Assembly: GCA_044892525.1 (NCBI GenBank)
Contig: CM097888.1
Span: 19,158,226-19,222,000 of the forward strand
Direction: 5' to 3'
Source of the DNA: Schmidtea polychroa
Taxonomy: Eukaryota
Length of the DNA stretch: 63,775 bases
The notes below the pieces were generated by a model. The model searched no databases and was not told where the DNA came from. It saw only the letters and a list, made by a program, of their open reading frames with translations. Made by a program: the position numbers and the translations under genes. This document shows positions 8,617 to 41,800 of the stretch, piece after piece (position 1 is the first letter of the stretch; each line of letters starts with the position of its first letter).

Positions 8617-9575
8617 TATTAAATTATATAGTTCAGATTAAAAGGAAAGCCGAAATTGAATGGCGGTCAAACAGAGAAGCAATGGCAAAGAAAGATATGA
8701 TAAAAAAAAAGGGTACAATCAGACATGAAATGGGAAAATGCGCAAACCGGAGGAAGTGGAATAAAGTGAAAAGTTATCGAAATTGAAGCTGGAAAACGGG
8801 AGAGGGGTAGATTAAGGGATGGTGAAGAAGACAGTGAGCAAGAAATTGTTAGAAAATGTGTAGAAAAGGTCGTAAAACAGACAAATGTGGAAAAACGTAA
8901 AATATTAATTAATTAATTAATTGGCTAATGGGAAACCCGAGCTAATGGGAAGCCCGAGCCAATGGAGAACCCGAGCGATGAAGAAAACCCGAGCACGGCA
9001 ATTTGGAAGGGTAAACAAACGAGGAATTCAGAGGGCAATTATCCAAACAATCGGATAAACGAGGGTAAACAAAAGACAGGGAATTACGAAGAGGGTCAAC
9101 AAAAATAGTCAATTAGGGAATGATAGCTGAAGAAGTCAAAACCAATTAGGTCAAAAATGGGGCAATTACAACGATTATGGGAGTATATAAGGAAACTCAA
9201 AATTCACATAATCGGCGATAGCCTTAGGTAGGGATACGAAGAAACAGACGATAGGAGTTCGAGGAATAAAAATAAAAAGGAAAAAGGAATTATAAGAGGA
9301 ATTTAGGAGTCAGAAAGGAATATTAAAGGAGTTCGGATCAGAGAGCGGAATCAAACAAAAGGTGAAACCTAATTTTTAATCGTACAAGGCCGAGACCTTC
9401 CAGAGCGGAGTTCGATCTGAAATTGTGTAAGAATTGTGATTAACCAACAGTGTGATTAATTGTTGAGTTGTGAATTGTTATAAAACAAATATACGTTGGG
9501 AGTTTTGTTTATTGATTTTGGAACACGTGGAGTCAGAGTAACCAACGGTTGATTTTAATATCATAAAACCCAACA
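8617..9575 (+). repeat. 5' LTR (first ~21 bp hidden in the gap)
   Basis: Matches 23897-24855 with no difference seen; ends ...AAAACCCAACA; contains GCTAATGGGAAACCCGA-type tandem repeats and TATATAA at ~9184. Confidence 0.95.
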
Positions 9576-9582
9576 TATATTT

Positions 9583-9600
9583 TGGTGAGCCCGACGTGAT
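9583..9600 (+). promoter_or_regulatory. Primer-binding site, tRNA-Trp-like
   Basis: TGGTGAGCCCGACGTGAT differs by one base from the classic tRNA-Trp PBS TGGTGACCCCGACGTGAT. It lies 7 nt after the LTR and is identical at 35858-35875. Confidence 0.85.
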
Positions 9601-9725: not shown

Positions 9726-11618
9726 GTGAGTGAATACAATTTGAGGAACCGAAAAGTAAAGATGGCCAGAGAGAACGCTGAGATGATAGATTTTGCCAGT
9801 TGTCAAAAATTACCGGTGAATCAGTATGGAGGAGACCCGGTTGATTTTGCCGATTTCATGGGCGATTATTATATGTACGCTTCGGCCTATGGGTGGTCAC
9901 AAGCCATAATGGTACAAAGATTGCCACTCTATTTAAAAGGAGCCGCAAGAGAAGCTTGGCAGCAAGTGGATAAAAAGACAATTGGAGATGATTGGGCCAA
10001 ACTCAAGGATGCGATGGCAATGAAATTGGTGGGAGGCGATATAAAAAGAATAATGCGCCAAAAATTTTATGCCAGAGTACAAAATCCAAATGAATCGGTA
10101 AGTGAATTTGCATACCATTTAACGACTTTAGCAGACAAAGCCTTCGAAGCAAAGCCTGAACAAGTTGAGATGGTAAAACAAGTCAGAGAACTGCTTCAAG
10201 ATCAATTTATAAATGGAGCCCTTCCTGAAATTAAAAAAGCCCTATGCTACGTGGATTTCTCGAATTTTGATGAACTTGTGAAAAAAGCCATGAAAATTGA
10301 ATTGAACTTGAAAAGTACCAGAAAATCCGAAGTATTTGCTGCCAATGCCGATAAAAGAGAAAGGTCGGTAACTCCAGTTCGAGAACAATGAGTATCAAAG
10401 AAACCAACCCAAACAATCAGTTCGCCAAGACCAAGTAATAAAGTCGAAATTAATAAAGCAGTGTTTGGGAGTCAGGTGGCTGCGAGATCTAACAGCATAG
10501 TATGCGATCACTGCAAGAAAGTGGGACACTATCCAAATCAATGCTGGTTTAAATATGGAAGAGACCCCAGCCCCAGAAGAAAGTTTGTAGAAAGTAAGCC
10601 AATTATTAATGACTTGAAATGCTATAGATGTGGGAAAATGGGCCACATAAGCAGGAATTGTTTTTCAGGTACCCCATCACCATCAAGATCCCCGTCGCCC
10701 CAACGAGATAAAGTGAACACTAATGGACAAATTCAATGTCATTCATGCAAAGGTTATGGCCACATGGCTCGATCATGCCCCCGAAACTCAGAAAGATTTA
10801 GCCGACCAATATTGAGGAAATCTATTAGATTTCAAGATGAATCAGCAAATACTAATGTTGCATATGCTCAAAAGGAGGAGTTTAAAGAGAAAATGGAAAA
10901 TGAATTTCGGGAAATGAGACAGAAATTAAACAAGCTTATGTCAAAGTTCGAATCAGATGAGGAAGCAGATTCGTGTATGGTGTACGAAAAAGAGGCCGAT
11001 GCGGGCGGAAATCTTAGTGATAAAGCAAAAAATGATCTATCAAATGAAAAGGCTGTTCTGTTGATAAAGAAAATAGAAAGATGGTATACCGGAATGAAAA
11101 CAGACCTTCCGAGATTGAAAGAGTGGATTACCGAACTAACTCAAATCCAACTCAGCCAAAGAAAATTGAAAATTATTTTAAACATGTGTGTCAAAGTTTA
11201 CAATAAATACCAAGACGATGAAATTGCAAAACTAATAAAGACATTGGGAAAAGCACTGAGATCCACAGAGAGCTTGACCGACATATTCGTAGAAACTACA
11301 GACGGAAGTGGCAGAAACTTTCAATTTACGATTAAACCTAGCGGGCAAATAAAGGATTTGAGGGAGCTCATTATGTCGAAATATAAAGCAAATGAAGTGC
11401 AAATAAATTTCAAAAAACGGTCGATGGGTCAATTGGCGGATGGAGAATATTTGGTCGATTGTGGGCTGATTCCTGGATATAAAAATGAGGTAAAGATATT
11501 CAATGTAATTAATCAATCAAATTCAGACTTTAAAGGATGGAGGAAAAATTACAGGATTTACGGGATAGTCTGTATATTGGAGATGAAGACGAAATTAGTA
11601 ATTGTCTGGAACGGATGA
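9726..11618 (+). CDS. gag: Gag (capsid + 3 CCHC knuckles) plus ubiquitin-like domain 1; in-frame TGA at 10389-10391
   Basis: ORFs 9726-10391 and 10461-11618 are in the same frame. Knuckles: CDHCKKVGHYPNQC, CYRCGKMGHISRNC, CHSCKGYGHMARSC. The TGA aligns with Trp in the sister element. Confidence 0.9.
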
Positions 11619-14600
11619 TAAGTTCGGAGATGGATCAAAAAGCGAAGGAACAATTATTCGAGAGTATTTTACCGTATATTCATAAAACGACGAACTATCA
11701 GGCGAAATTGAAAGAAATAGTACGAAAAATGGGCCGTGAGCACCGAGAGTCAGATGAGATACCCAGATCATTGGTAATAGCCTTAAATATGAATGGGAAA
11801 GTGGAGTACTTACAAGAACACTGGAGCATGAAGGTGTCGAAAGTACGACGGAAAGCGGTGGAAATGTTGGGTAATGATGGAATTGTTATACTAACTTTCA
11901 AGGGAGTTGAGTTAGATGACGATGAATACTTAATCAATTGTGGGTGCAGTCCGAATTATATAAATAATATCGAAGCCAAGAAACAGGTGAGGGAGGTATC
12001 CGAGAGTATAATAACCCATTGGCCGAGAATTACAAAGGATACGAAGGATGATGACATGGAAATTAAAAAGGAATTGGCTGAAGAACCTAACGACTACGAG
12101 TTAGAAGAGCATGACCCAAAAGATGAAGGCATAAATGACGAGCAAGACGAAATTACGAGTGAGGAGGTGGACGAAAATGATTCAGTAAATCAGGAAACTA
12201 ACCATATAACCGACGAGCTACTAGTGAGTGAAAGAGTGAAAAGTGAGTCGAATTTTGTAGAAGCGGAAAGTAAATTGAATGGTCGAAAGCGGTGTAAAAT
12301 CGAATTAATGGGTGGAAACGAAGAGAACGATAGAATAGATTCCAATGTGGTTGAAAAAACGGATCTGAATAATATGTCTCAAACAGAATCAATTTTGAAA
12401 GGGTTAGTAACAGAATTATATGCACTGGAAGAAGGAAATAGTTGTGACGATGAACTCATACATCAGCTTGCAGCGGTATTAAAACGTCGGCTTCCAGTAG
12501 TACTAAAGGATAATACCATAGAGAGGGTATTTTGCGATGAAACAGTAGTCAAGAGATTAATCAGGAACGGTTTGAACAGAGACATGGTACTAACAGTCCT
12601 TGCTTATGTTGTTCTAGAAATTGGCGTATATGGATGCTTGGAATGCGATAAATCGGAAAAATGGATAGTAAAAGCCACCGAAGTGGCGAATACATATGTG
12701 ACGGGTTGGATTATGCGTAATGGAGGATGGGAAAACTTGGTGCAAAAGTCGGAGACTGCGACAACTGGAAGAAATTATGAGCCGAAAAGAGGGAAAATAA
12801 TGTTTCCATGGCTAACCATGTCTATTTTGGTGATTTTAGGAGTTATTAATACCACAACGTCCTTGGAAGCGTACGATTGCTCCCAGACAGAAATGGGAAA
12901 AGTATATTCGCTAGTAGATGTAGCAGAGTGTCCAGACGCATATCCGAGGAACTTAAAATGGGCAAATGAAGTGACATACCACGTATACCAAGAAGCGGGA
13001 TTTAGACGAGTGAAAGTGAGAGAATGCACAGCAAAAAGAACTACGTTTATATTCTACTGTGGCAAATGGAGCCATTCGTCATTAATCAAAATGCACTCAA
13101 TTCCAAGAGTAATAGAGGTGACACGGGAAAACTGTTTGGCAGCGTTCCAAACAGGAGAGCTGAAAATAAATTCAGAAATTAATTTGAAGGCTAAATTAAA
13201 CTATAAAATTCGTGAAACTATAGCAGTTAAGGGGATAATCAAGGCAAATGGCGATTGCGAGGGTGAAGCGTATAAAGTAGGACAAACAGTCATTGATAAA
13301 ACCGTCGTGATAGAAGAATATGAAACCGAACTAAGGTATTTTGATGGATCATTCGATGACGATACGGGAAAATTGCAAACCCATCCATTTTGTAACATGA
13401 GGGAGAAAAGCTGCAACACAGGTGAGTCAATTCTGGTATATGAAGTTGATACCAAAAAATGCAATTTAGCACATTTAAAATCAATGCCTTTTAAAGAGAT
13501 AACGGGAGAGCAGATCCAAGAGAGACCAGAAAGCACAGTGCTAAACTCAGTCATGAATATGACACTTAGAATCACACCGATACGCTTGAAGAAAACGCCA
13601 ACGGTTTTAATGGCAATGTCCCGAAACGATGGGATGAGATTCTTAAGGAAGAGCGTAAATACGAAGTGTGGACAAACTGTTTATGAGACCAATTATAAAG
13701 GAATTTATTTATCCAAGAAAGTTGTCGAAGAAGCTCAAACAAAATTGTACGCAGAGGAAATTAAACTAACGAACTATTTCAATAATAAGATTGACTATTT
13801 ATTTCATTTTAGCCAAGATACAATTGAAAGTGTGTACAGGGAAATCATACTAAATGATTGCAAGTTAAACAAAGAAATCCTGCGAAACAGAATGGCGATG
13901 GCTATCACGAACCAGAATCTAGTTGCTCCAATGTTGATTTCGGAGAATGGAGTATTCGCTCGAATGCTTGGTGAAGCCTTATATAGTTATAAATGCAAGG
14001 CAGTACCTATTAAATTGATGAAATACAATCAATGCACAAATGAACTGCCTGTGAATGTTAATGGGAAGCTACGATTCATGGAGCCGGTGACACGAATTTT
14101 ATTGGAGGAGGACGCGAAACCGAGAGTGTTGCAGTGCAACAGATTATTGGCTCCACTATACCGCCTGACGCCCGAATCATGGATTGCACTACCTGATCAT
14201 AGAGGGGTGAAAGTCCCAGAAAAATTGGAGTTGACAAAATTAGAATATCTAATTAACTTTACATCGCTAGACAGCATGACTCAAAGTGGAATGTATTCAA
14301 GTGATGATATTGAAGCAGCACGCAGAAACTTATTATTCTCCTCGAAAAAGGAAAGGGTAATAACGAAAATAGTAGACACTATTCTCCCGAGTGGAACTGG
14401 AAAAGTGAATTACGACTATTTATTAACAGTGGATCATTACAAAAAGGCGACGTATAATACGATGAAAAAGATTTGGGGAAAATTTATGTTTATCGGGCAA
14501 GCCTGCGCGGGATTAATCGGAATATATGTGATCGGAATCATGATTAAAGTAATAGTTTCGCAGGTGTTATCAACACACAGATTATACACTATTACAGGTC

Positions 14601-16699
14601 TGTCGTGGAAGTTGGTTATTGGATGTATACCATTGTTAGCTAGATTTTTTATAACACATCATCAATATCGAGAGTTGGAAACGTTGAAAGCACAATTAAC
14701 GAAAAAGAGAAAGGTAAGTTATATTGATGTAACCACTACTTCTAATGAGGACAAAAGTGACAACGAGAACATCGGGGAATCGGCACCGTCATACGAGGAG
14801 GAACGGAATCAAGCCGATACATGGAAAAGTTATCAACTAATAAAAGAATCATTTTCTAATGATGGCAACCAGGATACATTCACTAGATTATGCATACCAA
14901 AATCATTTATACAACCACTACCAGCATATCCGGTAGATAAATTGATAGAAATGAAGCCAGTTGAGAACATTGCACTACAGTGTGAGAGAATCGATCCAAC
15001 GAGCGCAGAAATTGAAAGAAGAAATAGGTTAGGCTTACCTGGTAATTACGTACTAATGGCGTTAGCGAAAATTGGTAAACAACCACGAATAGTAATTCAA
15101 ATAAACAAAAACAGAGTTGAAGCCGTGGTGGATTCTGGATCGAGTCATACAATTATATCAGAAGAAATACTGTCGATGGAAGAGAAAAAACGAATCCAAC
15201 CATCCGATAGTGTAATCAGATCGTTATCCAGAAATGTGTTGCCAGTAATCGGAGAAATCGAAGTTGAACTGATAATCGGTGATAGAAGAATTAGACATAA
15301 CGTGCAAATTATGGAGAAAAGTCCTGTATTGTGCTTGATTGGAATGGATGTATTAGAACAATTAGACGGAATCTCACTTGATTTCAAAACTGGAAACCTG
15401 ATAGTGGGGAAAATAGGTGAAGTCATTCGTAATTCAGGAGAGGTGTTTCTAAACCAATCATTAACTATCCCACCTCAAACAGAAGTGGTATATTATGCTA
15501 GCGCGACTAGTGTCGATAATGATGAATTCATATTCGAACCCAGTCAAACGTTAATTGAAAAATACGAGACCCCAATGTGCGATGAAATCGTGAAAGTGGA
15601 AAACCAATTGCTACCAGTGCGAATAGCGAATTATGGTGATAAATCAATACGATTAAAGCCACAGACAAGATTGGGAAAACTGTCTCACATGTCGGTAGAA
15701 ACAGAAAAGAAAATTCCCAGAAACGTAAAAATTTATAAGGAACCCGAAGTTGTGAGCAAGGACCTGACCGAAAAACAAAAACAGGAATTTACAAAATTGT
15801 TGAGGAGATATCGAGATATTTTTGCGAAACATGAATACGACTTGGGGCTAACAAATATAATAGAGCACGAAATCCCGTTGCTGGATGAAACTCCGGTTAA
15901 AATAAAACCGTACAGAATCCCTTACATCCATCAAACCGAGAGTGATCGACAAATCAGGGCGATGAAAGAGTTTGGGATAATCAGAGACAGCTCCTCACCA
16001 TTTTCTTCGTCTATTGTAATAGTCAAGAAAAAGGACGGAGATTTAAGGTTTTGTGTCGATTATAGAAAACTGAATCAAGTAACAAGAAAGGATACTTATC
16101 CAATTCCCGTACCTCAAGAAATGTTTGATCAGATGGGAGAAGCCCAGTATTTTACGGTCATCGATTTGAACAAAGGCTATAATCAATTTAAAGTAAAAAA
16201 AGAAGATAGAAGGAAAACGGCATTTTCCGATGGTAAAGGCTTATATGAGTTCAATGTCTTGCCGTTTGGCTTAACGGGAGCCCCAGCTACATTCCAAAGA
16301 GGTATGAATTTTGTGTTGAGAGGCATCAGACATGCGCTAGTTTATATTGATGATATAATTATTTTTTCGAATAGCTTTGACGAGCATCTTGATGATGTGG
16401 AAACAGTATTTAAGCGACTTAAAAGCGCAAAATTGAAAATAAAACCATCAAAATGTGAATGGGGAAAATCTGAAGTAATATATGTTGGTCATATTATATC
16501 AAGAAGAGGTCTGCAAACTAATCCGGACAATATTAAAAAGGTGGAAGCGTATCCAATTCCAAAGAACGCGGACGAGGTGAGGCCATTTCTGGGATTAGCA
16601 AGCTATTATAGAAAGTTTATAAAGAATTTCTCGCATATCGCTCAGCCATTAAATTCGCTGTTAAAGAAAAATAATAAGTTTACATGGAGCAAAACCTAA
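11537..16699 (+). CDS. Polyprotein: Ubl2, acidic linker, Bcl-2-like domain, signal helix, chuvirus-like glycoprotein, aspartic protease, RT
   Basis: WIMRNGGWENLV (BH2-like); AYDC...SL..V.EC...YCGKWSH; TM segment WGKFMFIGQACAGLIGIYVIG; VVDSGS protease motif (15131); RFCVDYRKLN, LPFGL, VYIDD (16343). Confidence 0.9.
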   Translation: MEEKLQDLRDSLYIGDEDEISNCLERMISSEMDQKAKEQLFESILPYIHKTTNYQAKLKEIVRKMGREHRESDEIPRSLVIALNMNGKVEYLQEHWSMKVSKVRRKAVEMLGNDGIVILTFKGVELDDDEYLINCGCSPNYINNIEAKKQVREVSESIITHWPRITKDTKDDDMEIKKELAEEPNDYELEEHDPKDEGINDEQDEITSEEVDENDSVNQETNHITDELLVSERVKSESNFVEAESKLNGRKRCKIELMGGNEENDRIDSNVVEKTDLNNMSQTESILKGLVTELYALEEGNSCDDELIHQLAAVLKRRLPVVLKDNTIERVFCDETVVKRLIRNGLNRDMVLTVLAYVVLEIGVYGCLECDKSEKWIVKATEVANTYVTGWIMRNGGWENLVQKSETATTGRNYEPKRGKIMFPWLTMSILVILGVINTTTSLEAYDCSQTEMGKVYSLVDVAECPDAYPRNLKWANEVTYHVYQEAGFRRVKVRECTAKRTTFIFYCGKWSHSSLIKMHSIPRVIEVTRENCLAAFQTGELKINSEINLKAKLNYKIRETIAVKGIIKANGDCEGEAYKVGQTVIDKTVVIEEYETELRYFDGSFDDDTGKLQTHPFCNMREKSCNTGESILVYEVDTKKCNLAHLKSMPFKEITGEQIQERPESTVLNSVMNMTLRITPIRLKKTPTVLMAMSRNDGMRFLRKSVNTKCGQTVYETNYKGIYLSKKVVEEAQTKLYAEEIKLTNYFNNKIDYLFHFSQDTIESVYREIILNDCKLNKEILRNRMAMAITNQNLVAPMLISENGVFARMLGEALYSYKCKAVPIKLMKYNQCTNELPVNVNGKLRFMEPVTRILLEEDAKPRVLQCNRLLAPLYRLTPESWIALPDHRGVKVPEKLELTKLEYLINFTSLDSMTQSGMYSSDDIEAARRNLLFSSKKERVITKIVDTILPSGTGKVNYDYLLTVDHYKKATYNTMKKIWGKFMFIGQACAGLIGIYVIGIMIKVIVSQVLSTHRLYTITGLSWKLVIGCIPLLARFFITHHQYRELETLKAQLTKKRKVSYIDVTTTSNEDKSDNENIGESAPSYEEERNQADTWKSYQLIKESFSNDGNQDTFTRLCIPKSFIQPLPAYPVDKLIEMKPVENIALQCERIDPTSAEIERRNRLGLPGNYVLMALAKIGKQPRIVIQINKNRVEAVVDSGSSHTIISEEILSMEEKKRIQPSDSVIRSLSRNVLPVIGEIEVELIIGDRRIRHNVQIMEKSPVLCLIGMDVLEQLDGISLDFKTGNLIVGKIGEVIRNSGEVFLNQSLTIPPQTEVVYYASATSVDNDEFIFEPSQTLIEKYETPMCDEIVKVENQLLPVRIANYGDKSIRLKPQTRLGKLSHMSVETEKKIPRNVKIYKEPEVVSKDLTEKQKQEFTKLLRRYRDIFAKHEYDLGLTNIIEHEIPLLDETPVKIKPYRIPYIHQTESDRQIRAMKEFGIIRDSSSPFSSSIVIVKKKDGDLRFCVDYRKLNQVTRKDTYPIPVPQEMFDQMGEAQYFTVIDLNKGYNQFKVKKEDRRKTAFSDGKGLYEFNVLPFGLTGAPATFQRGMNFVLRGIRHALVYIDDIIIFSNSFDEHLDDVETVFKRLKSAKLKIKPSKCEWGKSEVIYVGHIISRRGLQTNPDNIKKVEAYPIPKNADEVRPFLGLASYYRKFIKNFSHIAQPLNSLLKKNNKFTWSKT

Positions 16700-18148
16700 C
16701 AATCAGCTTTTGACACGTTAAAGCAGAAATTAGTAATGGCACCTATTTTGCGATGCCCAGATTTTACGAAATCTTTCCTATTAATGACCGATGCCAGTAA
16801 CGTGGCATTGGGAGCGGTGTTAGGTCAGCAAGTGGACGGTGAAAAGGATCACGTAATAGCGTATGCAAGCAGATCTTTAAGGCCACATGAAAAAAATTAT
16901 TCAACAATCGAAAAAGAGACATTAGCGCTAGTTTACGGCATTACTACGTTTAGACAATATTTGCTGGGACGAAAATTCGTTGTATATACTGATCACAACC
17001 CCCTTCAGTGGTTAATGAAGCATAGAGATTCAACTAGTAAATTAATCAGATGGTCAATTGCTCTCCAAGAGTATGATTTCGAAATAAAATATAGAGCAGG
17101 AAAAGCGAATGCAAATGCCGATGCAATGTCAAGAATTCCCAATGGGCTTAGTGGAGAGGATACTGGTACAGAAAAGGTGGAAGGCACAATATTTGCAGCA
17201 ATCAAAGCCGTTAATAATGTGACTGAATTACAAAACGAACAGAAAAAGGATAACCGACTTAAACATTTCTTTGAACAAGCAATCACGGTCAGAAAGGAGA
17301 AAGATTTAAAACAGGTAATGAGTGAAAATCATAAATACATAATTCACGAGGGAATATTAAAATGCGTGAAAAACGACGAGATATTGATTATGATCCCGGA
17401 AAAACAGAGAGATTCACTGTTGATGCAATATCATGATGGAGCCCTAGGAGGACACTTGTCCGCTAGAAAAACCTTATCAAGACTGAAAATGAAGTACTAT
17501 TGGCCAATGATGGAAAAAGACGTAAAAGATTGGTGCAAAAATTGTAAGATATGTATAACTCGAAGAAATACAGGCAATAAAATTAAAGTACCTTTAAAAC
17601 CAATGTCTGTTCCAACCGCACCAATGGAGATGACTGCAATGGACATTGTTGGGCCGTTACCTGAAACAATAAAAGGAAATAAATGCATCGTAGTATTTTG
17701 TGATTATTTGACAAGATGGCCGGAAGCTTACGCCATACCAAATCAAAAGGCTGATACAGTAGCAAAAATATTTGTAGAGAACATTATTTTCCGATATGGT
17801 ACCCCAAAAAAGTTATTAACTGATCAAGGTAAAAATTTCCAAAGCGAATTATTTAAATCAATCACCGAGTTATTCGGAATCTGGAAGTTGAATACTTCGC
17901 CCTACCATCCACAAACCGATGGTTTAGTCGAGAGATTTAATGGCACATTGATAAATATGATTTCGTCGTATGTAAATAGCAAACAGAGAGATTGTGACGA
18001 CTACATAAAGCCTTGTTTGTTTGCATATAGAAATGCTGTCAACCCAAGTACGGGAGAGACACCTTTTTATTTAATGTACTTAAGACGAAACAACATGCCG
18101 ATAGATCTAAACTTCCGTTACTCAATATATGGAAGTACCCGAGTATAA
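16700..18148 (+). CDS. pol: RNase H and integrase, continuing pol past a premature TAA at 16697-16699
   Basis: TDASNVALGAVL, EKETLAL, YTDHNPL; HHCC zinc finger; MDIVGPL...TDQG...PYHPQTDGLVERFN. Confidence 0.95.
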   Translation, partial: QSAFDTLKQKLVMAPILRCPDFTKSFLLMTDASNVALGAVLGQQVDGEKDHVIAYASRSLRPHEKNYSTIEKETLALVYGITTFRQYLLGRKFVVYTDHNPLQWLMKHRDSTSKLIRWSIALQEYDFEIKYRAGKANANADAMSRIPNGLSGEDTGTEKVEGTIFAAIKAVNNVTELQNEQKKDNRLKHFFEQAITVRKEKDLKQVMSENHKYIIHEGILKCVKNDEILIMIPEKQRDSLLMQYHDGALGGHLSARKTLSRLKMKYYWPMMEKDVKDWCKNCKICITRRNTGNKIKVPLKPMSVPTAPMEMTAMDIVGPLPETIKGNKCIVVFCDYLTRWPEAYAIPNQKADTVAKIFVENIIFRYGTPKKLLTDQGKNFQSELFKSITELFGIWKLNTSPYHPQTDGLVERFNGTLINMISSYVNSKQRDCDDYIKPCLFAYRNAVNPSTGETPFYLMYLRRNNMPIDLNFRYSIYGSTRV

Positions 18149-18278
18149 TGCGATAATGCAAGAGAGGGTACAGTCGGTTTGGACAAAAGCCGGATTAACA
18201 ATAAAACATAATCAAGAGAAGTAAAAAGAAGCCTACGATAAGAAAACACGACCTCATGGAATAAAAATTGGAGATTTA

Positions 18279-19698
18279 GTGTATCTTAACAGACCAGAAC
18301 CACTCAAAGGTATGTCTCCAAAGTTACAGAGACCATTTAAAGTGCCATATAAAGTGTGTGATACAACCGAAACAAATTTGAAGTTATTACCGTTTAGGAG
18401 TAAAAAGGCAAATCCTATAATAGTTCATGCCAATCGTTGTAAATTGGTCCCGGAAAATGACGAAGAAAGATATCCATTACGATCGAAACGAAATGAAGAG
18501 AAGGCGGATACAAAAATTCAACAAAAATTCACCAAAAATCCAGTTCCAATCAGTTATCTTAACAGAGTGCTATTCACAACAGTCGTGCTAATGATGATGA
18601 CAAGGGTAAAAGGGATGAGAATGGATTTACCATATGCGATAACAAAAATACCCTTATGGGACAAGATCGATATTTATTCCACTTTTACAAATATTGTTTG
18701 GACTTATCAGTGCGAAATAATGGAGCAAATAGAAATTAGCAACGTGTTAGACCCGTTCACACCTTTCATTATTTTGAATTATGACAGAAATACGTATGCG
18801 GCACGAGAATTAAAAGTTAACTTCAAGTATCCATGGATCATAAAGCAGAATGAATCAGATTCGCTTGAAAAGTTTAATAGTCAAATTCGAATTATAATAC
18901 AAACTAACGAATTATGGAATACCGTGGAAATTGAGCCGATAATGAATGGTATAGATGTGTATTGGGTAGCCTTAGAAAGAGTAAAGGTGCAGGTCATATT
19001 TCAAAATTTTGTGGATATTCTAAACATGCGAAAGGCTTACACTCGGTATTACAATCTCAAAATGAACTCAAATTATACAATAACGGCTAATTACTACGAA
19101 AATGCGATGTATGATAATGGCACAATAATGAAAAATAAATGGACATTGTTTCAAACAGAGAATCAAATAATTCCCCTTAAGAATGTATCGAATCGTGTGA
19201 TTCTTGGAGTTCAAAACGGGTCAATAACAATTTATCGAAAATCCCCAGATGACGAAAGAGTGATTATCAGTAATGGAAAAAAAATTATCGTTTTGTTGGA
19301 TGCCGGTAAAAGCTATTTTTCATTAATTAGTTCTAATTTAGAATATGATTACCTGATAAAAATCAAATATCAACAACGGATATTCGAGCCATATCGATGG
19401 CAAACCGTTCTGGTGGAAACGAGAAGGGTACCAGGCCTGAAATCTGATGTAACCACAGCACGTCCAATTACTACAAAACAATACCAAGTTAACAATCGTG
19501 TAATAAATAAGCGGACTCAAATTGAGACTGATCAAGCTCTAATTATATGTGAATATTTGATATACCTCATCATTGACAGCATTTCTCATATTATCTCTGG
19601 TGTTCATAATAATAACAATCATTCTGTGCAAAAATAGACAGCATATTATAACTGATTTACGACTCGAGCCTTTCAGTGTGATCGAAACCACTGTATAA
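18279..19698 (+). CDS. Integrase C-terminus (GPY/F-like) fused to a signal peptide, ectodomain and TM helix (putative second membrane protein)
   Basis: SPKLQRPFKVPYKV, then hydrophobic VLFTTVVLMMMTRVKG. A shifted frame at 19564-19698 reads TSSLTAFLILSLVFIIITIILCKNR...TTV*. Confidence 0.7.
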
Positions 19699-19909
19699 AA
19701 TTACATTATAAAAATTGCATGCGTGTAAATAAATCTTATAAAACTAGTATGATTATAGATTAATAATAACATAAATTAGTATTTTGGTTGATCGGACTTC
19801 GCTATGGTGTGCTTGGCCTTGCGCGATAAAGAGTGTTTAAGAAAACTTTAATTATATTTAACTTCAGGAAGCCCAAGAGGAAGAGTCAATCAAAGAGTGT
19901 CGAAACTCA

Positions 19910-20113
19910 ATGAAAGAAATGAGAAGAAAAATGAAAGCAATGGAGAGGAAAATTGACGACTTGGAACTAGAGGATATGATTTGCAAAAGAAAGCTGGAAA
20001 GGATGGAAATTCTCCTGTTCCAATACGAAGCGGAAGTCGTGTTGCTAAGAATGCAGATACAGGGAAATGAATGCCCGACCGATGAGGAAAGAGAGATGGA
20101 TGAGTTAGAATAA
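19910..20113 (+). CDS. Small charged coiled-coil ORF inside the element
   Basis: 67 aa, heptad-like (MKEMRRKMKAMERKIDDLELE...); purine-rich like the element's coding region; the frame is open upstream to 19868. Confidence 0.4.
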   Translation: MKEMRRKMKAMERKIDDLELEDMICKRKLERMEILLFQYEAEVVLLRMQIQGNECPTDEEREMDELE

Positions 20114-20699: not shown

Positions 20700-23110
20700 G
20701 GACATACAATCATAAAAGCTGAGATTGGATATGGGCGGGGATTTCTTTCATCATACCTGTTTCAAAATTTTACATTTCCTATAATCTTTAAAAATCTAAT
20801 AAATTAATACTTCAAGCATTCCACCAACTTAACTGTGTGAAAAAAAAATATTTTTTTTTGTTTCAGAAACATATACTAACACAATTCCTATAATAAAAAA
20901 ATCAAGCACACTTGCGATGAAATTTATCGTTTCAAAATATAACAGATTTTTCATATACATAAATTATCAAAATTTTTTACAAAACTTCCAAACTTTGTAT
21001 TTCAACTAAGATTTTTATTTTTGTAAAAATTTTCTTTTAAAAATATTGTGTATGGGAAAAAAAATATACAAAAATATCACCGTAACGCATTAGATAAAAA
21101 CCTGAATCACAATAAATTAAATCTTTAATAGTATAAATTAAATTAACTTATAATAAAAGTGCGTGTGGCATGGACAAAAATTGACATTAAATTAGAGCCA
21201 TGTCGTTAAATAACGGTTTATAATGTAGGTGGATAGAAATTATTACTGAGAGAATAGAAAGAAAGAATAACCGCACACAAACACGATTCACAAAATATCT
21301 ATAATAAAAAATACTCACAATAGGACATTGAATAAGATCAAAACTCCACACAATCAAAACTATTAAAATGTTATGTGCAAAATTCTGTTAAGTTATAATA
21401 AAGTTTTCACCAAAAAGCGGAAAAGTTATTCGGCAAAATCGAAGGAAATTAAATTGCATTTAAAAAAAATAATCTGAATTAGATAATGAAACAATAAATA
21501 CCTTTTTTTACTTTTATTTCGAAATGCTAATAAATTTTTTTTTAAAAAAAAAAAAAAATCTTTTATAAATATTCAATAAATTAAAAACCTGAAATTACAT
21601 ACAAAGTATTATAGATGAAACGAAAAGATAAATTAATTATATAAAATAAATTAAATTCTTATTCATTGTCATAACAAAGGCGATTTGGTCCAAACGATAT
21701 TGGGTTCACAGCAACGTGGAGGGCAAGCGACTGACGATTTGATTATTATTATTATTTCAATTTACTAAATTGAAAATAATCAACAATATATTAAAAATAT
21801 AAAATTAACCTCTAATATACTTTGACTCTGATCTGAATGTTCTACACTTGCTGAATAACTTTTGTATAAACCTCCATTTTTGGATGTAACTGAAACGAAA
21901 TAAATTATAAATTAAATAAATTCGTAATAATTAAATAATACAATAATTAGCAACACTTCTCAGGCTGTTTTATGTCGGAAACGTTAATAGTTGGCATACT
22001 CCTACTGGAAAACTTATTAAAAACGTAATTTGTTTAATAACTCCTTAATTGAAAACATTTTTAGAAACTTCTTCAGTACTTACATGAATTTTCTTATATT
22101 TATTACATTTAAAATGTAAAATACTTTATTTAAATTATTTTTTAAGAAAAATAATAATAATAATAATAATTAATAAAATAAAAATAATAAAATTAATATA
22201 AAAAAATAAAAATAATAAATAAAATAAGATAATGATATAAGTGATAAAAACGAAAGATCATGAATATGTGAAGGCAAATAAAAATCCATCAAATAAGCAC
22301 ACACGCATGCATCTAACACAACGGCGATTAGCGATATCAGTATATGAGCATGTCTGAGAAGTAGCATCATCAACACACAGCCTTAACAGTAAGGAATTCT
22401 GAAAATAATAAATAAAATAAGATAATGATATAAGCGATAAAAACGAAAAATCAATCAAAAATCAAAATCATAAATAATGTAAAAATAAATAAACAAAAAA
22501 ATAATGAAAATAATATTAATATTAATTATTATAATTATAAGTAGACTGAATACGAGAAAGGTCTTACCGATTCGTAGACACTGTTAAGTAAGCAAGCTGC
22601 TGCTCCCATTGCTGGTTCATAGTTTTTAACACATCCCACAAGAACCCAATAAGCAGATTTAAATCGTTCTCCTTTAGTATTTGAAATAGTTCCTTTAGCA
22701 ATCCAACATATGTGTCAATTAAAGTTTCCTGAAAATCTCCAGCAGATAGAAATGCCATTTTGAAAATATTGTGTAGTTGCTCAAACGGTAATATCTCACT
22801 GGAGAACTCAGGTATCTGACTGTAGAAATACAGCACCGTTTCAATGTCCTGAATTATTACGGATTTTTAGAGAATTTAAGTTAGATACAAGGCCTATTTA
22901 TACCTAAATTAAGATTAATAAATTAACAAACAAATAATTACCATTTCAAGAGGCAATTGATTATAATTGCCAACATGGGAGGCAGAACATTGTTACTCCC
23001 GGAATCGACATTGATAGCAAGAATCGACATTGAGAGCAAATATAATTTAGACATGATTGATCTGGTAAACATTGAGGGATAAAATTATCTTGCCGTCTCC
23101 AAACTGCAAT
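20700..23110 (-). pseudogene. Intron-containing host-like gene of unknown identity, antisense within the LTR element
   Basis: Exon-like blocks with AG and GT borders, e.g. 22565-22846 DIETVLYFYSQIPEF...YLTVSTNR/gtaag and 22265-22400. Further blocks at ~21810-22040 and ~20700-20760. Confidence 0.45.
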
Positions 23111-23224
23111 TTAATATTAAATTTAAAATTGTATTGTTTATTTACAAGGAAATAAATCAAACTTGTTGACATTATTATATTTATAAACACAGCGTGGAAT
23201 TAATATTGAATCTTTCGTTAAACT

Positions 23225-23490
23225 ATGGAAGAATTAGGAAAGTATATTCTTGATAAATCACTAATTTCCAATAAAGTATGCCGTTACGATGATGATTGTA
23301 TCGATCGACTTAATCATGTTTATACAACTACGCTTATAGGAATTTGTTTTTTTTTATGTTCACAAGGTAACTAGTTGGGAAACCTATCACTTGTTGGCTA
23401 CAGACGGAATTTTCTGACTCTCAAGTGGCATATGCGGAACATGTATGTTGAGTCATGAGTACTTACTACGTGAAATTGGATGAAATTTAA
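23225..23490 (+). pseudogene. inx: Innexin N-terminal fragment (frameshift and TGA at a conserved Trp)
   Basis: YDDDCIDRLNHVYTT...(fs)LVGKPITCWLQTEFSDSQVAYAEHVC*VMSTYYV matches the innexin DDDxxDRLN / VGxPIxCW / CWxxxTY signature. Confidence 0.88.
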
Positions 23491-23841: not shown

Positions 23842-23872
23842 TTTCGAGGACGAAATTTTTTTTAAGGGAGAG
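23842..23872 (+). promoter_or_regulatory. Polypurine tract with upstream TTTCGAGGACGAAA motif
   Basis: TTTCGAGGACGAAATTTTTTTTAAGGGAGAG lies 3 nt before the TGTTG of the 3' LTR, as is typical for Gypsy elements. Confidence 0.75.
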
Positions 23873-23875
23873 CTA

Positions 23876-24855
23876 TGTTGAGGTTTGAAAATAAATTATT
23901 AAATTATATAGTTCAGATTAAAAGGAAAGCCGAAATTGAATGGCGGTCAAACAGAGAAGCAATGGCAAAGAAAGATATGATAAAAAAAAAGGGTACAATC
24001 AGACATGAAATGGGAAAATGCGCAAACCGGAGGAAGTGGAATAAAGTGAAAAGTTATCGAAATTGAAGCTGGAAAACGGGAGAGGGGTAGATTAAGGGAT
24101 GGTGAAGAAGACAGTGAGCAAGAAATTGTTAGAAAATGTGTAGAAAAGGTCGTAAAACAGACAAATGTGGAAAAACGTAAAATATTAATTAATTAATTAA
24201 TTGGCTAATGGGAAACCCGAGCTAATGGGAAGCCCGAGCCAATGGAGAACCCGAGCGATGAAGAAAACCCGAGCACGGCAATTTGGAAGGGTAAACAAAC
24301 GAGGAATTCAGAGGGCAATTATCCAAACAATCGGATAAACGAGGGTAAACAAAAGACAGGGAATTACGAAGAGGGTCAACAAAAATAGTCAATTAGGGAA
24401 TGATAGCTGAAGAAGTCAAAACCAATTAGGTCAAAAATGGGGCAATTACAACGATTATGGGAGTATATAAGGAAACTCAAAATTCACATAATCGGCGATA
24501 GCCTTAGGTAGGGATACGAAGAAACAGACGATAGGAGTTCGAGGAATAAAAATAAAAAGGAAAAAGGAATTATAAGAGGAATTTAGGAGTCAGAAAGGAA
24601 TATTAAAGGAGTTCGGATCAGAGAGCGGAATCAAACAAAAGGTGAAACCTAATTTTTAATCGTACAAGGCCGAGACCTTCCAGAGCGGAGTTCGATCTGA
24701 AATTGTGTAAGAATTGTGATTAACCAACAGTGTGATTAATTGTTGAGTTGTGAATTGTTATAAAACAAATATACGTTGGGAGTTTTGTTTATTGATTTTG
24801 GAACACGTGGAGTCAGAGTAACCAACGGTTGATTTTAATATCATAAAACCCAACA
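23876..24855 (+). repeat. 3' LTR (980 bp)
   Basis: Terminal inverted repeat TGTTG...CAACA; matches the 5' LTR. Confidence 0.95.
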
Positions 24856-26280: not shown

Positions 26281-27087
26281 ATGTCAGAGATATTGTATGA
26301 AAATTTTCGAAATGATGGTCGACGCCCAAATAATATTAGATCAATAACATCTCAAATAGGTGTGCATGCCAATTTTATTGATGATGGTTACGTATGCTTA
26401 GAACAAGGTAATACGAAAGTTATTGCGTCGATATATGGACCACGGGAATGTCGTAATCATTCTGATGCTAAGCATGATTCTGCTATTATTAGTTGTAAGT
26501 ATTTCAAGGGTCATACTGCCAATTTCAATGCTGGCCGTAGACATGGAAAACGAGATAATATAAGTGATTTGAATGCTGATTGTGTTAAAGTGTGTTTTTT
26601 ATACAATTATAATTTTATAAATTTAAATTAGAGTATAATGGAAAAGGTGATTGAGCTTCATTGGTATGGTGAAACTCAGATTGACATCAATATACTCGTT
26701 CTACAATCTGATGGTTCTGAGTTAGCCGTAGTTATTAACGCTGTGTCCCTAGCATTAATGGATGCTGGTATACGCATGAAAGATTTTGTCACTGCTAGTA
26801 CTGTCGGATTATTTGATCAAACAATTCTTGCGGATTTAAATGGTTTTGAAGAAAATCAGTTTTCTTTACCTTCTTTAACCATGGTTTTGCTCCCTAATAC
26901 TCCAAGCAATGAACGGTTCACTAAAATGTTTCCAAATAATATCGATCACATTAGTCAAGTAAATACACTTTATGTAGCTGCGGAAAGTGTTTGTGAAACG
27001 GTTTATAAAGAATTAAATAAACAAATCAAATTATATGTTGCAGCAAAATTGGATAAACAGCATGCTATTGAAGGCCGTTCGAATTAA
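26281..27087 (+). CDS. EXOSC4: Exosome complex component RRP41 (2 exons, 42-nt intron at 26590-26631)
   Basis: RNase PH motifs RNDGRRPN, LEQGNTKVIASIYGPRE, QIDINILVLQSDGS, INAVSLALMDAGI. Confidence 0.93.
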
Positions 27088-33910: not shown

Positions 33911-35857
33911 TGCAAAATATCACTAATTAATAATATATAATAAAAAAATGGTTTGTTAAAAAATAATTAGTTAAAACAAGTTTAAAATACTTCAAACTGA
34001 CGTATAAGTTTTGTTTAAAATGTAAGCAACGAGTATTGTAAAATTAATTTAATATTATTATAAATTTTGAATTAAAATTTTCTTAAAATTCTAGAAAAAA
34101 TCTATTATTAATAGAAAACAAATTTTTAAAAATAAATAAAGTTTGAGTCAATTTGAATTTTCTAGAAGTATCTCTTAAAATTATATAGGGAATTGTTTTG
34201 TAACAGTTATTGATGTATTTTTTAATTTATTTAACTTGAATTAAAAATATAATATTAACAAAAATGTATTGTGAGATTTTGATTGTTGATCTACCCGGGC
34301 TCAACAAAGGGGAGTGTCATTGTAGGTCAACTAGGACAATCATAGTCACCGCGAAATACGCTTAGTCAAATAATACGCGGTCATAAACAATCATGGTTCT
34401 TGTAAAGTTATTATATTCTGTTGTTGTGGTTGGTGAAATTTCTGACCCTTATTTGTATGTTCACCAATATATAAGTTGTTTTTTTTTATTGTGTTCTAAT
34501 TAAATTCATTATCCTCAAAAAGTTCTTAAGGTATGTTTAATAAACTATGGCTATGTTTCACTTAATTTATATTCAAACATTTTAGATGTGGTATTGTATG
34601 AACAGGTTTTAATAGATTAATGTATGATTCCTGATGACTTATAATCGTTTGAGGATAGAAAGTTTGTAAAGGCATAGTTGAGAAAGTAATTATAATAAGG
34701 GACCTGCGTAAATCGGACATATATCTTCTAACAATAGTCCGTGAACCCAGTAGAGTGCTCGACAATTACAGTGCAAGTAGTGCGCTCACTTTTTGCGAGC
34801 ACTCACCCTCTTGATACAGTACCAACGTTGATCATTCAACGGGTATCAAGCGGTAAACAATGTTGTATCTTGGGTTACGCTGGTAACAGCACTAAAGAGC
34901 AAAATATTTCATCATCAGTAACCCACCAAGTATTAGAAAATGCCAAAAGCAATTACGAAAGGCAAGAATCCGGAAATCCGAGAAAAATCAATAAATGGGA
35001 AAATCATCGAAATCGAATGGGAAAACGGGACAGGTATAGATTAGCTAATGGTCAACAAGATGATGATTAGGGATTTATCAGAAAATGGTTAGGAAGGGTC
35101 GAAAAAACATTCAAATGTGTGAAAACAGAAAACGTTAATTAATTAATTAATTGGCTAATGGAAAACCCGAGCTAATGGGAAACCCGAGCCAATGGAGAAC
35201 CCGAGAGATAAAGGAAACCCGAGCTGGGTAAACAAGAAGAAAAGCAAACAGAAGGAAGATTTGGGCCCATTAGCTTGACACAATGATTAATGGGAAAAGA
35301 GTAAGGAGAAGATAGCGCGCGTAGGAAGACCGGTAGGGCCATTAATTATCTGGATTCGTTGGACCATTATGGGTGACAGCCGAAGCAAATACGTAGGAGC
35401 AAATGTCAAACGAAAGATTGGCTCGGCAATAACCATTTGTCATCCCGATTTCGAGGAGTATATAAGGAAAGGGAAAATCAGAGAAAATCGGCATTTTGCC
35501 TCAGCTAGGGTTCGAAGAATCAGAGCGTAGGAAAAGTTGGTAAACGAATTAGGGAAAGTAGGGAAAAGAAGAAATAGAATAAAGAGTACTTAAAGGTGAA
35601 AAGGAATCAAACCAAACAGAAACCGAGGAAGACGTGAGTCGAGAGAATCTAAAGGACTAAAAGGTGAATATTATTTGTTTGCAAAGCATCAACGCCGAGC
35701 GGAGAATCGTATAAAACTTTGATTATTAATTGTAGCGTGGTGATAAATTGTGAACCTGTTGTTTCAATATACGTTGGGTCGTTCATTGTTTTGATTTAAA
35801 GAACACTAGGAGTCAGAGAGAACCGACTTGAAATAATCCAAAACCCAACATATATTC

Positions 35858-35875
35858 TGGTGAGCCCGACGTGAT
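35858..35875 (+). promoter_or_regulatory. Primer-binding site, tRNA-Trp-like
   Basis: TGGTGAGCCCGACGTGAT, 7 nt after the LTR end. Confidence 0.85.
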
Positions 35876-36142
35876 TGCAAGTCGACGGAAAATTATTGAA
35901 AGTTAGTGAAAAAAAAATAATTGTTGAAAAAAATAGTACCGACGTGATAGAAAGTCGGCGGTGTATTAAAAATTAGTGGAAAAGTTAATTATTGGAAAAG
36001 TACTACAGACCTGAGTGAAAGTTGGCTTTGAATTTTGAAAATAGTGTTAACGAGAGAGATATAGAAGGCTATTATTGGGAGATTTACAAGAAGTTGAAAA
36101 GTAATTTTAAATTATTGTTTAACGTTTGAAGTTTAGCTCAAA

Positions 36143-37825
36143 GTGAACCGATACAACCTCAGAAGCCAGAAACAAGTCCAAATGGCAAATGATAATGCTG
36201 TTATGCCTCTCAATAGAGAGATGATTGATTTCGCAAGTTGCCAGAAATTACCCGTCAACCAATATGGAGGAGACCCTGTTGAATTTGCAGATTTCATGGG
36301 AGATTATTATATGTATGCCTCAGCATACGGATGGACACAAGCCATTATGGTTCAGAGATTCCCACTCTATCTAAAGGGTGCGGCAAGAGAAGCCTGGCTG
36401 CAAGTCGACAAACGGAATGTTGGCAATGATTGGACAAAATTGAAGGATGCAATGGCACTGAAACTGGTTGGTGGAGATATCAAAAGAATCATGCGACAGA
36501 AATTTTATAACCGAGTTCAAGGTCCAGATGAATCGGTCAGTGAGTTTGCTTATCATCTGACCACTTTAGCAGATAAAGCCTTTGAAGTTAAACCAGACCA
36601 AGCAGATATGGCCAAGCAGGTTAAAGAGCTGTTAGAAGATCAGTTTATAACCGGAGTCCACTCCGAAATTAAAAAAGCCCTATGTTATGTGGATTTTTCC
36701 AATTTCGATGAGCTCGTGAAGAAAGCCATGAAGATAGAGCTGAATTTAAAAAGTGCAAAAAGATCAAATGCTTTTGGAATTAATGTGGAGAGACGTGAGC
36801 GGTCAATTACGCCTGTGAGAGCACCATGGGATGAAAAGAAAATAAATCAAATCAGTAGTCCAATTTTGAGACCAAATAATAGATTTCAAGCCATTAGATC
36901 AGCCATGAACGTACAATCAAATGGACAGGTAAATAATCCTCAATGCGAACATTGCAAAAAGTCTGGACACTACTCAAATCAATGTTGGTTCAAATATGGG
37001 AAAATCCCAGCCCTAACAAGAGATTCACAGAAAACAAACGGATCAGCAATGATGTCGAATGCTATTGATGTGGAAAGAAAGGGCATATTAGCAGAAACTG
37101 TTTCACCAGATCAAGATCATCGTCATTGTCACCTTCACCACAAAGAGACAAAGTGAATACAAATGGACAGATCCAATGTCATTCGTGCAAGGGATACGGC
37201 CACATGGCGCGATCATGCCCAAGGAACTCAGCAGACCTATATTAAAGAAATCGATCAGATTCCAAGAAGATATGCCAAACACTAGTAATATGACATATCC
37301 TCAGAGAAAGGAATTTCAAGACAAAATGGAAAAGGAATTTCGAGAAATGCGACAGAAGCTGAACAAATTAGTGGCTAAATTTAAATCAGATGAGGAAACT
37401 GAATCTCATATGATAATTGGAACCGTGTCAGAAGGTGAGGGAAAACCTGCCACGAAAGTGCGAAAGATCGCATCAGATGAGAATCCGACTGCACTGTTAG
37501 CCCGAGTGAAAAAATGGCTTGAGAAAATGGAAACTGACAACTCCCAGTTGAAACGATGGATCGCAGAACTCAGTGTGATGTCACTAACCCAAAGCGAACA
37601 CTAGAGAAAGCCATAAATTTATGTGCAAAGTTATTCAAAGGAAACAGAGACGATGAGATAATTGAGCAAATGCAAAAGTTTGGCAAGGCTTTACGGTCAA
37701 CAAGGGATTTAGCTGATATCATAGTGGAAACGACGGGACTTGATAATGTGAAGTGCCAATTCCGTGTAAATGCATACGGACAAATCAGAGAGCTAAAGGA
37801 GCGAATACTGCGTCAATACAGTTGA
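36143..37825 (+). pseudogene. gag: Gag of the sister element (frameshifts and stops), ending inside Ubl1
   Basis: MIDFASCQKLPVNQYGGDPV is shared with element 1; CCHC knuckles; DIIVETT...FRVNAYGQIRELKERIL aligns to element 1 Ubl1. Confidence 0.9.
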
Positions 37826-39978: not shown

Positions 39979-41800
39979 CGGTGATGGCGAACCTTTTCGA
40001 GCTTGCGTGTCATTAATATTTTTTTTATAAAATAATAAGACGCGTGCCGAGAAAATAAAATAAAACCAATACATAATATATTTTGTAAATAAATTTCAGA
40101 ACTATACATAATAAACAAATATTTTTGTGTTATGGTAATATCTTTATTAAAAAAAGTATAAAATGAAAATATAGTTGAAATGAAATAAAAAACATTCATA
40201 TTTTTATTTATTTAGTTATATAAATAAATAAAAAGTAATTAAAGAATGAAATTATTTTTGCAAAACAAACTTAAATTAAAGAGATTTCTGTTGTTGTACG
40301 GTGGATGATAAATATTTTATATCCGGCTCATAACTCGTAGCTTTTAATACGAGTAGAAAGAAGTGTGCTCCATTACTCATCACATACCCCCTGCAATGAC
40401 TCATCATTATAACTCATCCATAGTAACCATGGTAGTTATGTCAAGGTCATTCTAGTAACCATGGTAACTAGGTCAAGGTCATTCCAGTAACCATGGTAAC
40501 TAGGTCAAGTTCACACGACTAATAACTAGGTCAAGGCCGTTCTATTTTAAGTATCAAGGTCACCTAATTACCATAGTTACTATGGTTGTTATGGATAAGT
40601 CATGGAGCACATTTCTCTCTACTAATAAGATACAAGAAGTACTGCTATCGTCTGTCTGATTTAATAAAAGTCATTGAAGAAAACAACGTTTCACAAGAAT
40701 AAGTAGATGAAAAAATTGTTAAAATAGCCATTGCTATTTTTTCAAGACAAGAAAAATTATCGGGAATATATTTCCAAATTGTAAGAATTTCATTTTCACC
40801 ATTTCTCTGGACTGCTCCAAATAATCTATCTCGTTCAATTTCTTCAAAAATGATTCTTAAATCAATGAATTTTTGATTCCATATTGAACTAGATTGAAAA
40901 TCCACCAATTGCATCTCGAAATCTTCTAAATTCATAAACTCTAATATCGTTAAATTTAACTGTTCGTATGTATAAATATCTGGATGAGTAATAAATTTTG
41001 AAGTTTCTTCAAATTGTATAAATCTTGCCGAAAATTGTTCAATTGTAGCTTCTAAAATATTGTTGAATTCTTTTATTATTTTTGTTACATCGGGTTTTTC
41101 ATGAATTTCTAAGTCCATCATATATTTTTTGAAATTTGGGAAAGACTTAAAATTTCTGCTCATTAGGTCACATTTAAATATTTTTAGCTTAGCTTCAAAT
41201 GCTTTGATGAGATCATACATAATATCAATGGTTTTCCCAAAAAAACGTTATAGTTTAATATTCAGTTCATTCAAATAAGAGTAAAAATCCGTAAAGAACA
41301 TTAATCTTGATATCCACTCAACGTCTGATAACTCTGTATACTGAATTTGTTCATGGTCATCCAAAAACATCCGAACTTCATCCAAACATTCGACGAAACG
41401 TTGTAGAACTTTGCCGTGACTAAGCCAACGAACATTTTTGTACATAGTTAAACCATTGTACACCTAGTTGACTTCATTTAACAAAGTTTCGAACTTTCTT
41501 TTGTTTGAAGCATGTGCGACGGATATAGTTAACTATTTTAGTCACAAGTTTTATCATATCGTCAACTAATTTAAGGCCGTTTTTGCACACAAAGTTTATT
41601 GGTGAATTATGCAACGAAAGCCAAAAAATGGATTCCCAACACACTTTGTAAATAATTTGACAAATCCTGCTTCTTTACCAATCATACTGGGTTACAGATA
41701 CGACTTTCGAAAGATCTACTTCTGCTTCAGAAAGAGCATCTGTTACTGCTTTGCAAATATCTACACATTTGGCAGCTAATGGAAAATTTGTCAACCAACA
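39979..41800 (-). mobile_element. Degenerate hAT (Charlie/GTF2IRD2-like) transposon
   Basis: End CGGTGATGGCGAACC; VRWLSHGKVLQRF, LMFFTD, TIFSSTYSCETLFSSMTFIKS (hAT dimerisation region). Confidence 0.88.
40352..40623. mobile_element. 272-bp Polinton/Maverick-like miniature element
   Basis: AGTAG...CTACT termini with ~21-bp TIR; flanking 6-mers AATACG / AATAAG; internal GTAACCATGGTAACTAGGTCAAGGTCA repeats. Confidence 0.6.

Follow-up and report, generated by a model that had tools for sequence, protein, structure and literature searches.

The DNA analysed here is a 63,775-nucleotide stretch of the Schmidtea polychroa genome (assembly GCA_044892525.1, contig CM097888.1, positions 19,158,226 to 19,222,000 of the forward strand), referred to below as the window, and it carries a long terminal repeat (LTR) retroelement in which a class III fusion glycoprotein, G, is encoded at positions 12794-14660 in frame with the protease (PR) and the reverse transcriptase (RT). 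The element is probably best described as a Ty3/Gypsy element of the Burro type, whose intact copies encode Gag, G, Pol and a second membrane protein, GP2, in one frame, the product likely passing the membrane of the endoplasmic reticulum (ER) four times and likely being cut by signal peptidase and by the element's own protease. Proteins in the window were assigned with Pfam profiles, Foldseek, VIA, Atlas, PDB profile searches, AlphaFold2 models and hydropathy (KD19). The features of the element given below lie on the plus strand, apart from one fragment noted as such.

The stop-free frame that holds G spans positions 11534-16699 (1,721 residues) and contains the motifs LEAYDC (12863), WGKF (14474), DSG (15131) and YIDD (16343). 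The first-pass annotation had quoted the G, DSG and YIDD motifs and had noted the lack of a stop between G and the latter two, and both observations are correct. Its assignment of a chuvirus-like class III glycoprotein is also borne out, as G matches PF24664 (Monjiviricetes_fusion) with 298.6 bits and an E-value of 8.9e-89 (cut-off 27), with Borna G as a weak second Pfam match; the possibility raised there that the region might turn out to be a cellular protein found no backing, since no cellular Pfam family scores above the cut-off for the G region. The Bcl-2-like domain described below was modelled together with G in AlphaFold2 (a monomer of 774 residues, built from 11 sequences), and in Foldseek the model retrieves the glycoproteins of chu-like viruses first among viral models (E 1.1e-32, 19% identity), with those of qin-related viruses and xinmoviruses close behind, the identity to viral G being 16-21%. 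Against the PDB, the model matches gB of herpes simplex virus (HSV) with an E-value of 7e-12, and in VIA the same comparison gives a Z-score of 8.4 over 310 aligned residues (rmsd 25) at 10-14% identity to gB. The modelled fold thus supports G as a class III fusogen of the chuvirus-like or gB-like kind with a predicted role in fusion. The profile and fold matches to the Jingchuvirales/Monjiviricetes G and to herpesvirus gB extend over the full ectodomain, whereas the G of the window is part of a retroelement polyprotein. Matches of the G profile to centrin (E 0.001) were rejected as spurious helical similarity.

G has the layout of a membrane glycoprotein. Its signal sequence (12794-12862) is internal, lying 25 residues behind the Bcl-2-like domain, and appears as a hydropathy peak in all copies and in four distant relatives; signal peptidase is predicted to cut directly before LEAYDC. 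The ectodomain (12863-14473) comprises 537 residues with 14 cysteines, in line with the cysteine-rich character first ascribed to it, and is followed by the membrane anchor (14474-14660), which consists of the main transmembrane (TM) segment at 14501-14557 and a weaker hydrophobic segment at 14597-14653. In the window copy the KD19 values of the two are 2.37 and 1.59, respectively. The second segment holds two basic residues and falls to KD19 values of 1.0-1.3 in three relatives, and we infer that it is amphipathic and does not span the membrane.

About 145 residues behind the anchor follows the aspartic protease (15083-15385, with DSG at 15131; gag-asp_proteas, E 8.7e-7), then RT and RNase H (RH; 15905-17090, with YIDD at 16343; RVT_1, E 2e-33; RT_RNaseH, E 4e-40) and the integrase (IN; 17390-18450; Integrase_H2C2, E 6.7e-21; rve, E 1.5e-11). 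The Pfam matches thus give the order PR-RT-RH-IN with RNase H and H2C2 integrase domains of the Gypsy type, and by this order together with the LTRs, tRNA primer-binding site, polypurine tract and target duplication the element is a Ty3/Gypsy LTR element, as had been proposed in place of BEL/Pao. BEL-specific Pfam domains such as Peptidase_A17 and DUF1759 have no match at E-values up to 1 in the five element frames, and the position of env in Anakin-type BEL/Pao elements reportedly differs from that in the window element. Between PR and RT lies a conserved stretch of about 110 residues, at the place where Burro-type elements have a dUTPase-like domain, for which no Pfam or PDB match was found. 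Protease-like domains number two or three in the distant relatives P0007, P0008 and P0009. In P0008, C2H2-like fingers separate G from RT, and another protease-like domain lies behind the integrase.

The arrangement is evidently maintained beyond the window copy. Of 3,150 genome candidates, 73 were scored for G and all 73 match it, so that the genome holds at least 73 G copies, which form groups at 97-99%, 88-90% and 78% identity. A stop falls inside G in ten of these, and 15 of the matches lie in frames of at least 3,000 residues (one of them flagged for a stop, and three on small contigs that may be duplicates of chromosomal copies). Of ten copies examined in full, selected mainly by frame length, five have the whole coding region, in the order gag, ubiquitin-like, Bcl-2-like, G, PR-RT-RH-IN and GP2, in a single frame of 3,329-3,361 residues. 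A fourth subfamily, 71% identical in G, has the same layout. Element lengths are 14.4-17.8 kb, and all eight copies with both flanks have 4-bp target duplications. Between the two closest subfamilies, the G ectodomain has a ratio of nonsynonymous to synonymous substitution (dN/dS) of 0.032, the G anchor one of 0.020, RT one of 0.026 and IN one of 0.021, and in this one usable pair G is under constraint like RT; the values for the G-PR linker, the ubiquitin-like part, the Bcl-2-like domain and GP2 are 0.07, 0.12, 0.25 and 0.13, respectively. One copy of the fourth subfamily (locus L027, G000:C52) is without RT, RNase H and integrase and joins G, part of the protease and GP2 in a frame of 1,433 residues; it is an internally deleted and probably non-autonomous copy.

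The second membrane protein, GP2, is encoded at 18555-19698 in the same frame as the integrase, with a frameshift near 19575 in the window copy. It is predicted to be a type I membrane glycoprotein of about 400 residues, with a signal-like segment (18555-18614), a region of some 270 residues rich in beta structure (the ectodomain reaching to about 19420), a Thr/Pro stalk, a strong TM segment from about 19536 and a short tail. The tail ends in ETTV in the window, and five of the six sequences that include a C-terminus end in [ST]-x-[VL] (ETTV, ETRL, ETWV, STLV and VTQV), the class I PDZ-binding pattern, the remaining subfamily ending in HRQ. N-glycosylation sequons occur at 1.3-2.9 per 100 residues compared to 0.45-0.83 in Pol, and three of them are common to three subfamilies with 37% identity. 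GP2 is kept in four subfamilies, with about 40% identity in the fourth, and 114 genome matches at 47-100% identity are found among the matches listed. A search of 1.84 billion representatives retrieved only four unnamed relatives, one of which starts with the post-integrase motif YSLRS. The distant P0008 likewise ends in a signal, stalk and TM segment after the integrase, with an ectodomain that does not match the GP2 profile and an end that is not PDZ-like.

As to the fold of GP2, its ectodomain repeats the pattern L-x-x-N-x-x-Y about every 95 residues, and such a repeat resembles Fn3. Atlas places the relative P0012 beside Fn3 proteins (0.90, all ten best named matches from one clan, at low recognition) and gives no usable match for GP2 itself. 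PDB profile searches with GP2 return tenascin (E 0.75) and neogenin (E 1.1-1.9), none significant alone, and no Pfam family scores above the cut-off for GP2 or its relatives. Three segments align in register in hhalign with a best E-value of 0.005, which is not significant given reversed controls at 0.024, and the AlphaFold2 model from three sequences (pLDDT 35) was uninformative in Foldseek and VIA. As a lead, the ectodomain possibly consists of three Fn3 domains. A complex prediction of G with GP2 run without alignments scored 0.00 and speaks neither for nor against an interaction.

Upstream of G, Gag (9762-10900) comprises a capsid domain and three CCHC knuckles at 10503, 10620 and 10737 (Retrotrans_gag, E 6.7e-9; zf-CCHC, E 1.4e-10). 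It is followed by two ubiquitin-like segments (11280-11985, with a frameshift near 11540), the second of which was judged by eye only; ubiquitin (PF00240) matches above the cut-off in one related copy (E 1e-5) and with an E-value of 0.16 in the window. Release at a ubiquitin-type di-glycine was considered and rejected, as residues 481-900 contain 0, 1 (in an acidic linker) and 2 GG pairs in the three subfamilies compared. The Bcl-2-like helical domain (12383-12745) carries a BH2-like motif, WIMRNGGW, at 12707, and also precedes G in the distant P0002 and P0009. Its best PDB match is Bcl-2, with an E-value of 0.035 alone and 0.006 with a profile of three sequences, and VIA gives Z-scores of 5.6-5.7 against BHRF1, Bcl-xL and Bcl-2, level with those of unrelated helical bundles.

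Strongly hydrophobic segments occur four times in each uninterrupted frame, first a signal and a TM segment and then again a signal and a TM segment, and the distant P0008 likewise reads signal-G-TM-Pol-signal-TM. From this order a route for the polyprotein can be proposed. Gag and the ubiquitin-like and Bcl-2-like domains would be made in the cytosol, as the N-terminus has no signal, and the internal signal would then carry the G ectodomain into the ER lumen. After cleavage, this signal could stay behind as a tail anchor of the Bcl-2-like domain; normal Bcl-2 proteins also carry a tail anchor. The G TM segment would bring the chain back to the cytosol, leaving PR-RT-RH-IN on the tail of G until released by the protease, and the second signal and TM segment would place the GP2 ectodomain outside and its PDZ-type tail inside. 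Signal peptidase would thereby free the N-termini of both ectodomains and the element protease would free Gag, PR, RT and IN, with G mediating the fusion of a particle that is enveloped or passes from cell to cell. The first-pass suggestion that Pol sits on the cytoplasmic tail of G thus agrees with the shared frame and the order of the hydrophobic segments, which make the cytosolic side the most likely one. This placement holds only if the segment at 14597-14653 does not cross the membrane, as otherwise the sequon-rich GP2 ectodomain would be cytosolic and its PDZ-type tail luminal, and the sequons and the PDZ-type end of GP2 accordingly support a cytosolic Pol. In the structural polyproteins of flaviviruses and alphaviruses, a cytosolic capsid is followed by internal signals, and signal peptidase and a viral protease separate the products. 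The likeness is one of working principle only, since those viruses have class II fusogens and RNA genomes and no homology to the window element.

Several observations weigh against the proposed topology and its parts. With a KD19 value of 1.59, the second segment of the anchor could span the membrane, which would make Pol luminal, and in the window the charges of the 15 residues on either side of the G TM segment break the positive-inside rule (three K/R before, one after), with which only a 60-residue count agrees (9 K/R). A ratio of 1:1:1:1 for Gag, G, Pol and GP2 would be odd for particle assembly. Of the sequons that had been noted alongside the cysteines, the G ectodomain has only two, and they are weak evidence for G because the density in related copies, 0.2-0.4 per 100 residues, is not above that of the Pol part. 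The G model has a mean pLDDT of 54 and TM-scores of only 0.2-0.3, and because of the low TM-scores the fold match rests on local domains and not on a fit of the whole chain. For the Bcl-2-like domain, the BH1 motif is degenerate (NRD, NKD or DRD) although the BH2-like motif is kept, and Pfam Bcl-2 reaches E-values of 0.001-0.2 in four relatives, P0002 and P0009 among them, always below the cut-off. Finally, the choice of the fully examined copies by frame length overstates the share of intact ones, and the dN/dS values come from a single pair with a dS of 0.9-1.6, the other two subfamily pairs being saturated and giving only the same rank order in dN.

Much of this architecture has been described before. 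The planarian Burro polyproteins contain Gag, Ubi/SUMO-like and BCL2-like domains and an env in frame between gag and pol (Arkhipova and Yushenova 2019, PMC6431247), and Burro/GYPSM1 shares with the window element the three CCHC knuckles, both accessory domains and a mononegavirus-like in-frame env within one polyprotein. Burro1 differs in its 4,873-residue open reading frame (ORF), a length of up to 30 kb and its MATH, BIR and ankyrin domains, for which the window family, with 14-18 kb and 3,329-3,361 residues, has no Pfam match; the Burro section of the paper names no membrane protein after the integrase. According to the consulted parts of Chary and Hayashi 2026 (PMC13524379), an Anakin-type glycoprotein also adjoins Gypsy pol, and nematode, bryozoan and flatworm elements have the order GAG-ENV-POL with a gB-type Env. 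The same parts favour an ancient association over a recent capture, and note that the gB of herpesviruses depends on gD, gH and gL and that it is unexplained how gB-type elements enter cells. Smed_errantivirus_1-6, described there, share with the window element the Gypsy pol, a gB-type env before pol, a length of about 14.5-18 kb and a multicopy state, and a stretch of the G of Smed_errantivirus_1 is identical to that of the window at 69 of 100 positions, as counted by eye. Where the table in the sections consulted leaves the six Schmidtea rows without a tRNA primer, the window element uses tRNA-Trp, and the main text, as far as consulted, does not contain the words 'polyprotein', 'in-frame', 'fused' or 'Burro', nor do those parts mention a second glycoprotein. 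Anakin and other BEL/Pao elements (Dezordi et al., PMC7642597, consulted in part) have a glycoprotein of the same family in an LTR element, but with a BEL/Pao Pol. The window element is largely known: it is a compact element related to Burro and closely related to the published Schmidtea gB-type elements. A post-integrase membrane protein is absent from the descriptions of Burro and gB-type elements in the parts covered by this limited literature check, and GP2 seems not to have been described previously.

How G was acquired and how the frame is used can also be read in other ways. The first-pass annotation had proposed a new, independent capture from a chuvirus, and a separate acquisition of a chuvirus G, specific to this Gypsy lineage, would fit the chu-like glycoproteins as the best structural matches (about E 1e-32), a published pol tree in which GAG-ENV-POL elements are not monophyletic (PMC13524379, as far as consulted) and, to judge by the title of Sacco et al. 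2022, the capture of RNA-virus genes in nematode elements. The proposal is not supported in that form, however, as the arrangement is already published for Burro and gB-type elements, and the comparison of G and RT trees suggested there gave the same branching for G and for RT-RH over four subfamilies and P0008, a small test of five taxa in which G tracks RT. Nor can a chuvirus be named as the donor, since the G of chu-like viruses shares the top of the fold matches with qin-related and xinmovirus G, these and other viral G scoring alike at 16-21% identity, whereas the closest sequence relatives, in protein searches that did not extend to viral G, are the G of other retroelements at 34-42%. 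A separate capture is for these reasons doubtful. That an endogenous viral G fragment was inserted by chance into a decaying retroelement might be suggested by the three stops and three frameshifts of the window copy, but is refuted, with practically no probability left to it, by the at least 73 G copies, the layout that four subfamilies have in common, the strong purifying selection and the target duplications at recent insertions.

Alternatively, the single frame may be real while G, Pol and GP2 are for the most part translated from spliced RNAs of their own or from internal starts, with Pol rarely made on G. Separate production would remove the difficulty with the stoichiometry, the gypsy element of Drosophila as a rule makes env from a spliced RNA, and gene calls give P0002, P0004 and P0012 as proteins of their own. 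Such calls may, however, reflect broken copies or short contigs, four subfamilies keep the frame open at both junctions, and the linker between G and PR, with its dN/dS of 0.07, is under purifying selection, so that this arrangement appears unlikely. It is quite improbable, too, that G is kept for a membrane role in or between cells, such as budding at the ER or into vesicles or fusion of neighbouring cells, and not for extracellular infection. The Bcl-2-like and ubiquitin-like cargo and the PDZ-type tail do suggest some handling of the host cell, and the entry mechanism of gB-type elements is called unknown in the consulted parts of PMC13524379; the whole G ectodomain with its cysteines is nevertheless as constrained as RT, which fits a working fusogen but does not separate an intracellular from an extracellular route.

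The window copy itself is about 16.3 kb long from LTR to LTR. The visible part of its 5' LTR (8617-9575) ends in CA, its start being hidden by a stretch of N, and the polypurine tract and 3' LTR occupy 23860-24855, with TG at 23876 and CA at 24855; all 959 comparable bases of the two LTRs are identical. Relative to a natural uninterrupted copy of 96-99% protein identity, the window copy has stops at 10389-10391 (in Gag), 16697-16699 (severing RT from RNase H) and 18222-18224 (in the integrase) and changes of frame near 11540, 18115 (also in the integrase) and 19575, all outside the G-PR-RT stretch. Because the LTRs are identical although the frame is broken in six places, the copy is probably a recent insertion mobilised in trans by other copies. 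The 18-nt primer-binding site (9583-9600) is complementary to tRNA-Trp(CCA) and is matched by tRNA-Trp(CCA) genes of the same genome. It lies 7 nt behind the LTR end (9576-9582), and the distance is 7-8 nt in all nine copies compared, the window copy and eight others. This gap is wider than is usual for most LTR elements, and it may bear on the trimming of the DNA end by the integrase. The tRNA-Trp(CCA) pattern, that of the element's primer, has 821 matches genome-wide, and a long tandem array of such genes with a 284-bp period extends from about 55.02 Mb on (locus L022, G000:C4).

Behind the main frame, a small coiled-coil-like ORF at 19862-20113 is 42-62% identical in other subfamilies, has no Pfam family above the cut-off and is preceded by a pyrimidine-rich AG; from these features it is possibly a spliced accessory gene. 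A decayed innexin-like fragment follows at 23222-23490 (Pfam Innexin, E 3.8e-4 over 26 residues, below the cut-off), present in the window and in two of eight other copies, both of the window's subfamily. Gene-like fragments at 22564-22866 (minus strand) and at 23222-23490 (plus strand) occur only in that subfamily, and are probably captured host sequence in decay. A second, 3'-truncated copy from a related subfamily lies at 34790-37861 and is about 71% identical in Gag, with a 5' LTR, a tRNA-Trp primer site, a broken gag and the start of the ubiquitin-like part. Elsewhere, the window contains an exon of an exosome-type RNase PH (26632-27087), a hAT transposase fragment (40645-41247) and an unrelated integrase fragment (44088-44969).

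The joining of G to Pol on its own repeats published work, and what is added is a testable topology for the gag-env-pol fusion, which was known but had not been explained, together with GP2 as a candidate entry partner for gB-type Gypsy elements. More speculatively, and on balance improbably, these elements could be two-glycoprotein endogenous viruses whose four-pass polyprotein combines a class III fusogen with a captured, Fn3-type and PDZ-tailed partner for attachment or sorting, the latter in a role like that of herpes gD and gH/gL beside gB, while the G signal anchors a Bcl-2-like inhibitor of cell death. If true, such a model would supply the gB-type Gypsy elements with an entry partner and would imply a mode of processing unlike that of known retroviruses. 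The candidate partner GP2 is found in a model animal whose stem cells reportedly receive support from a related element (PMC13465017, consulted in part, citing Lee et al. 2026).

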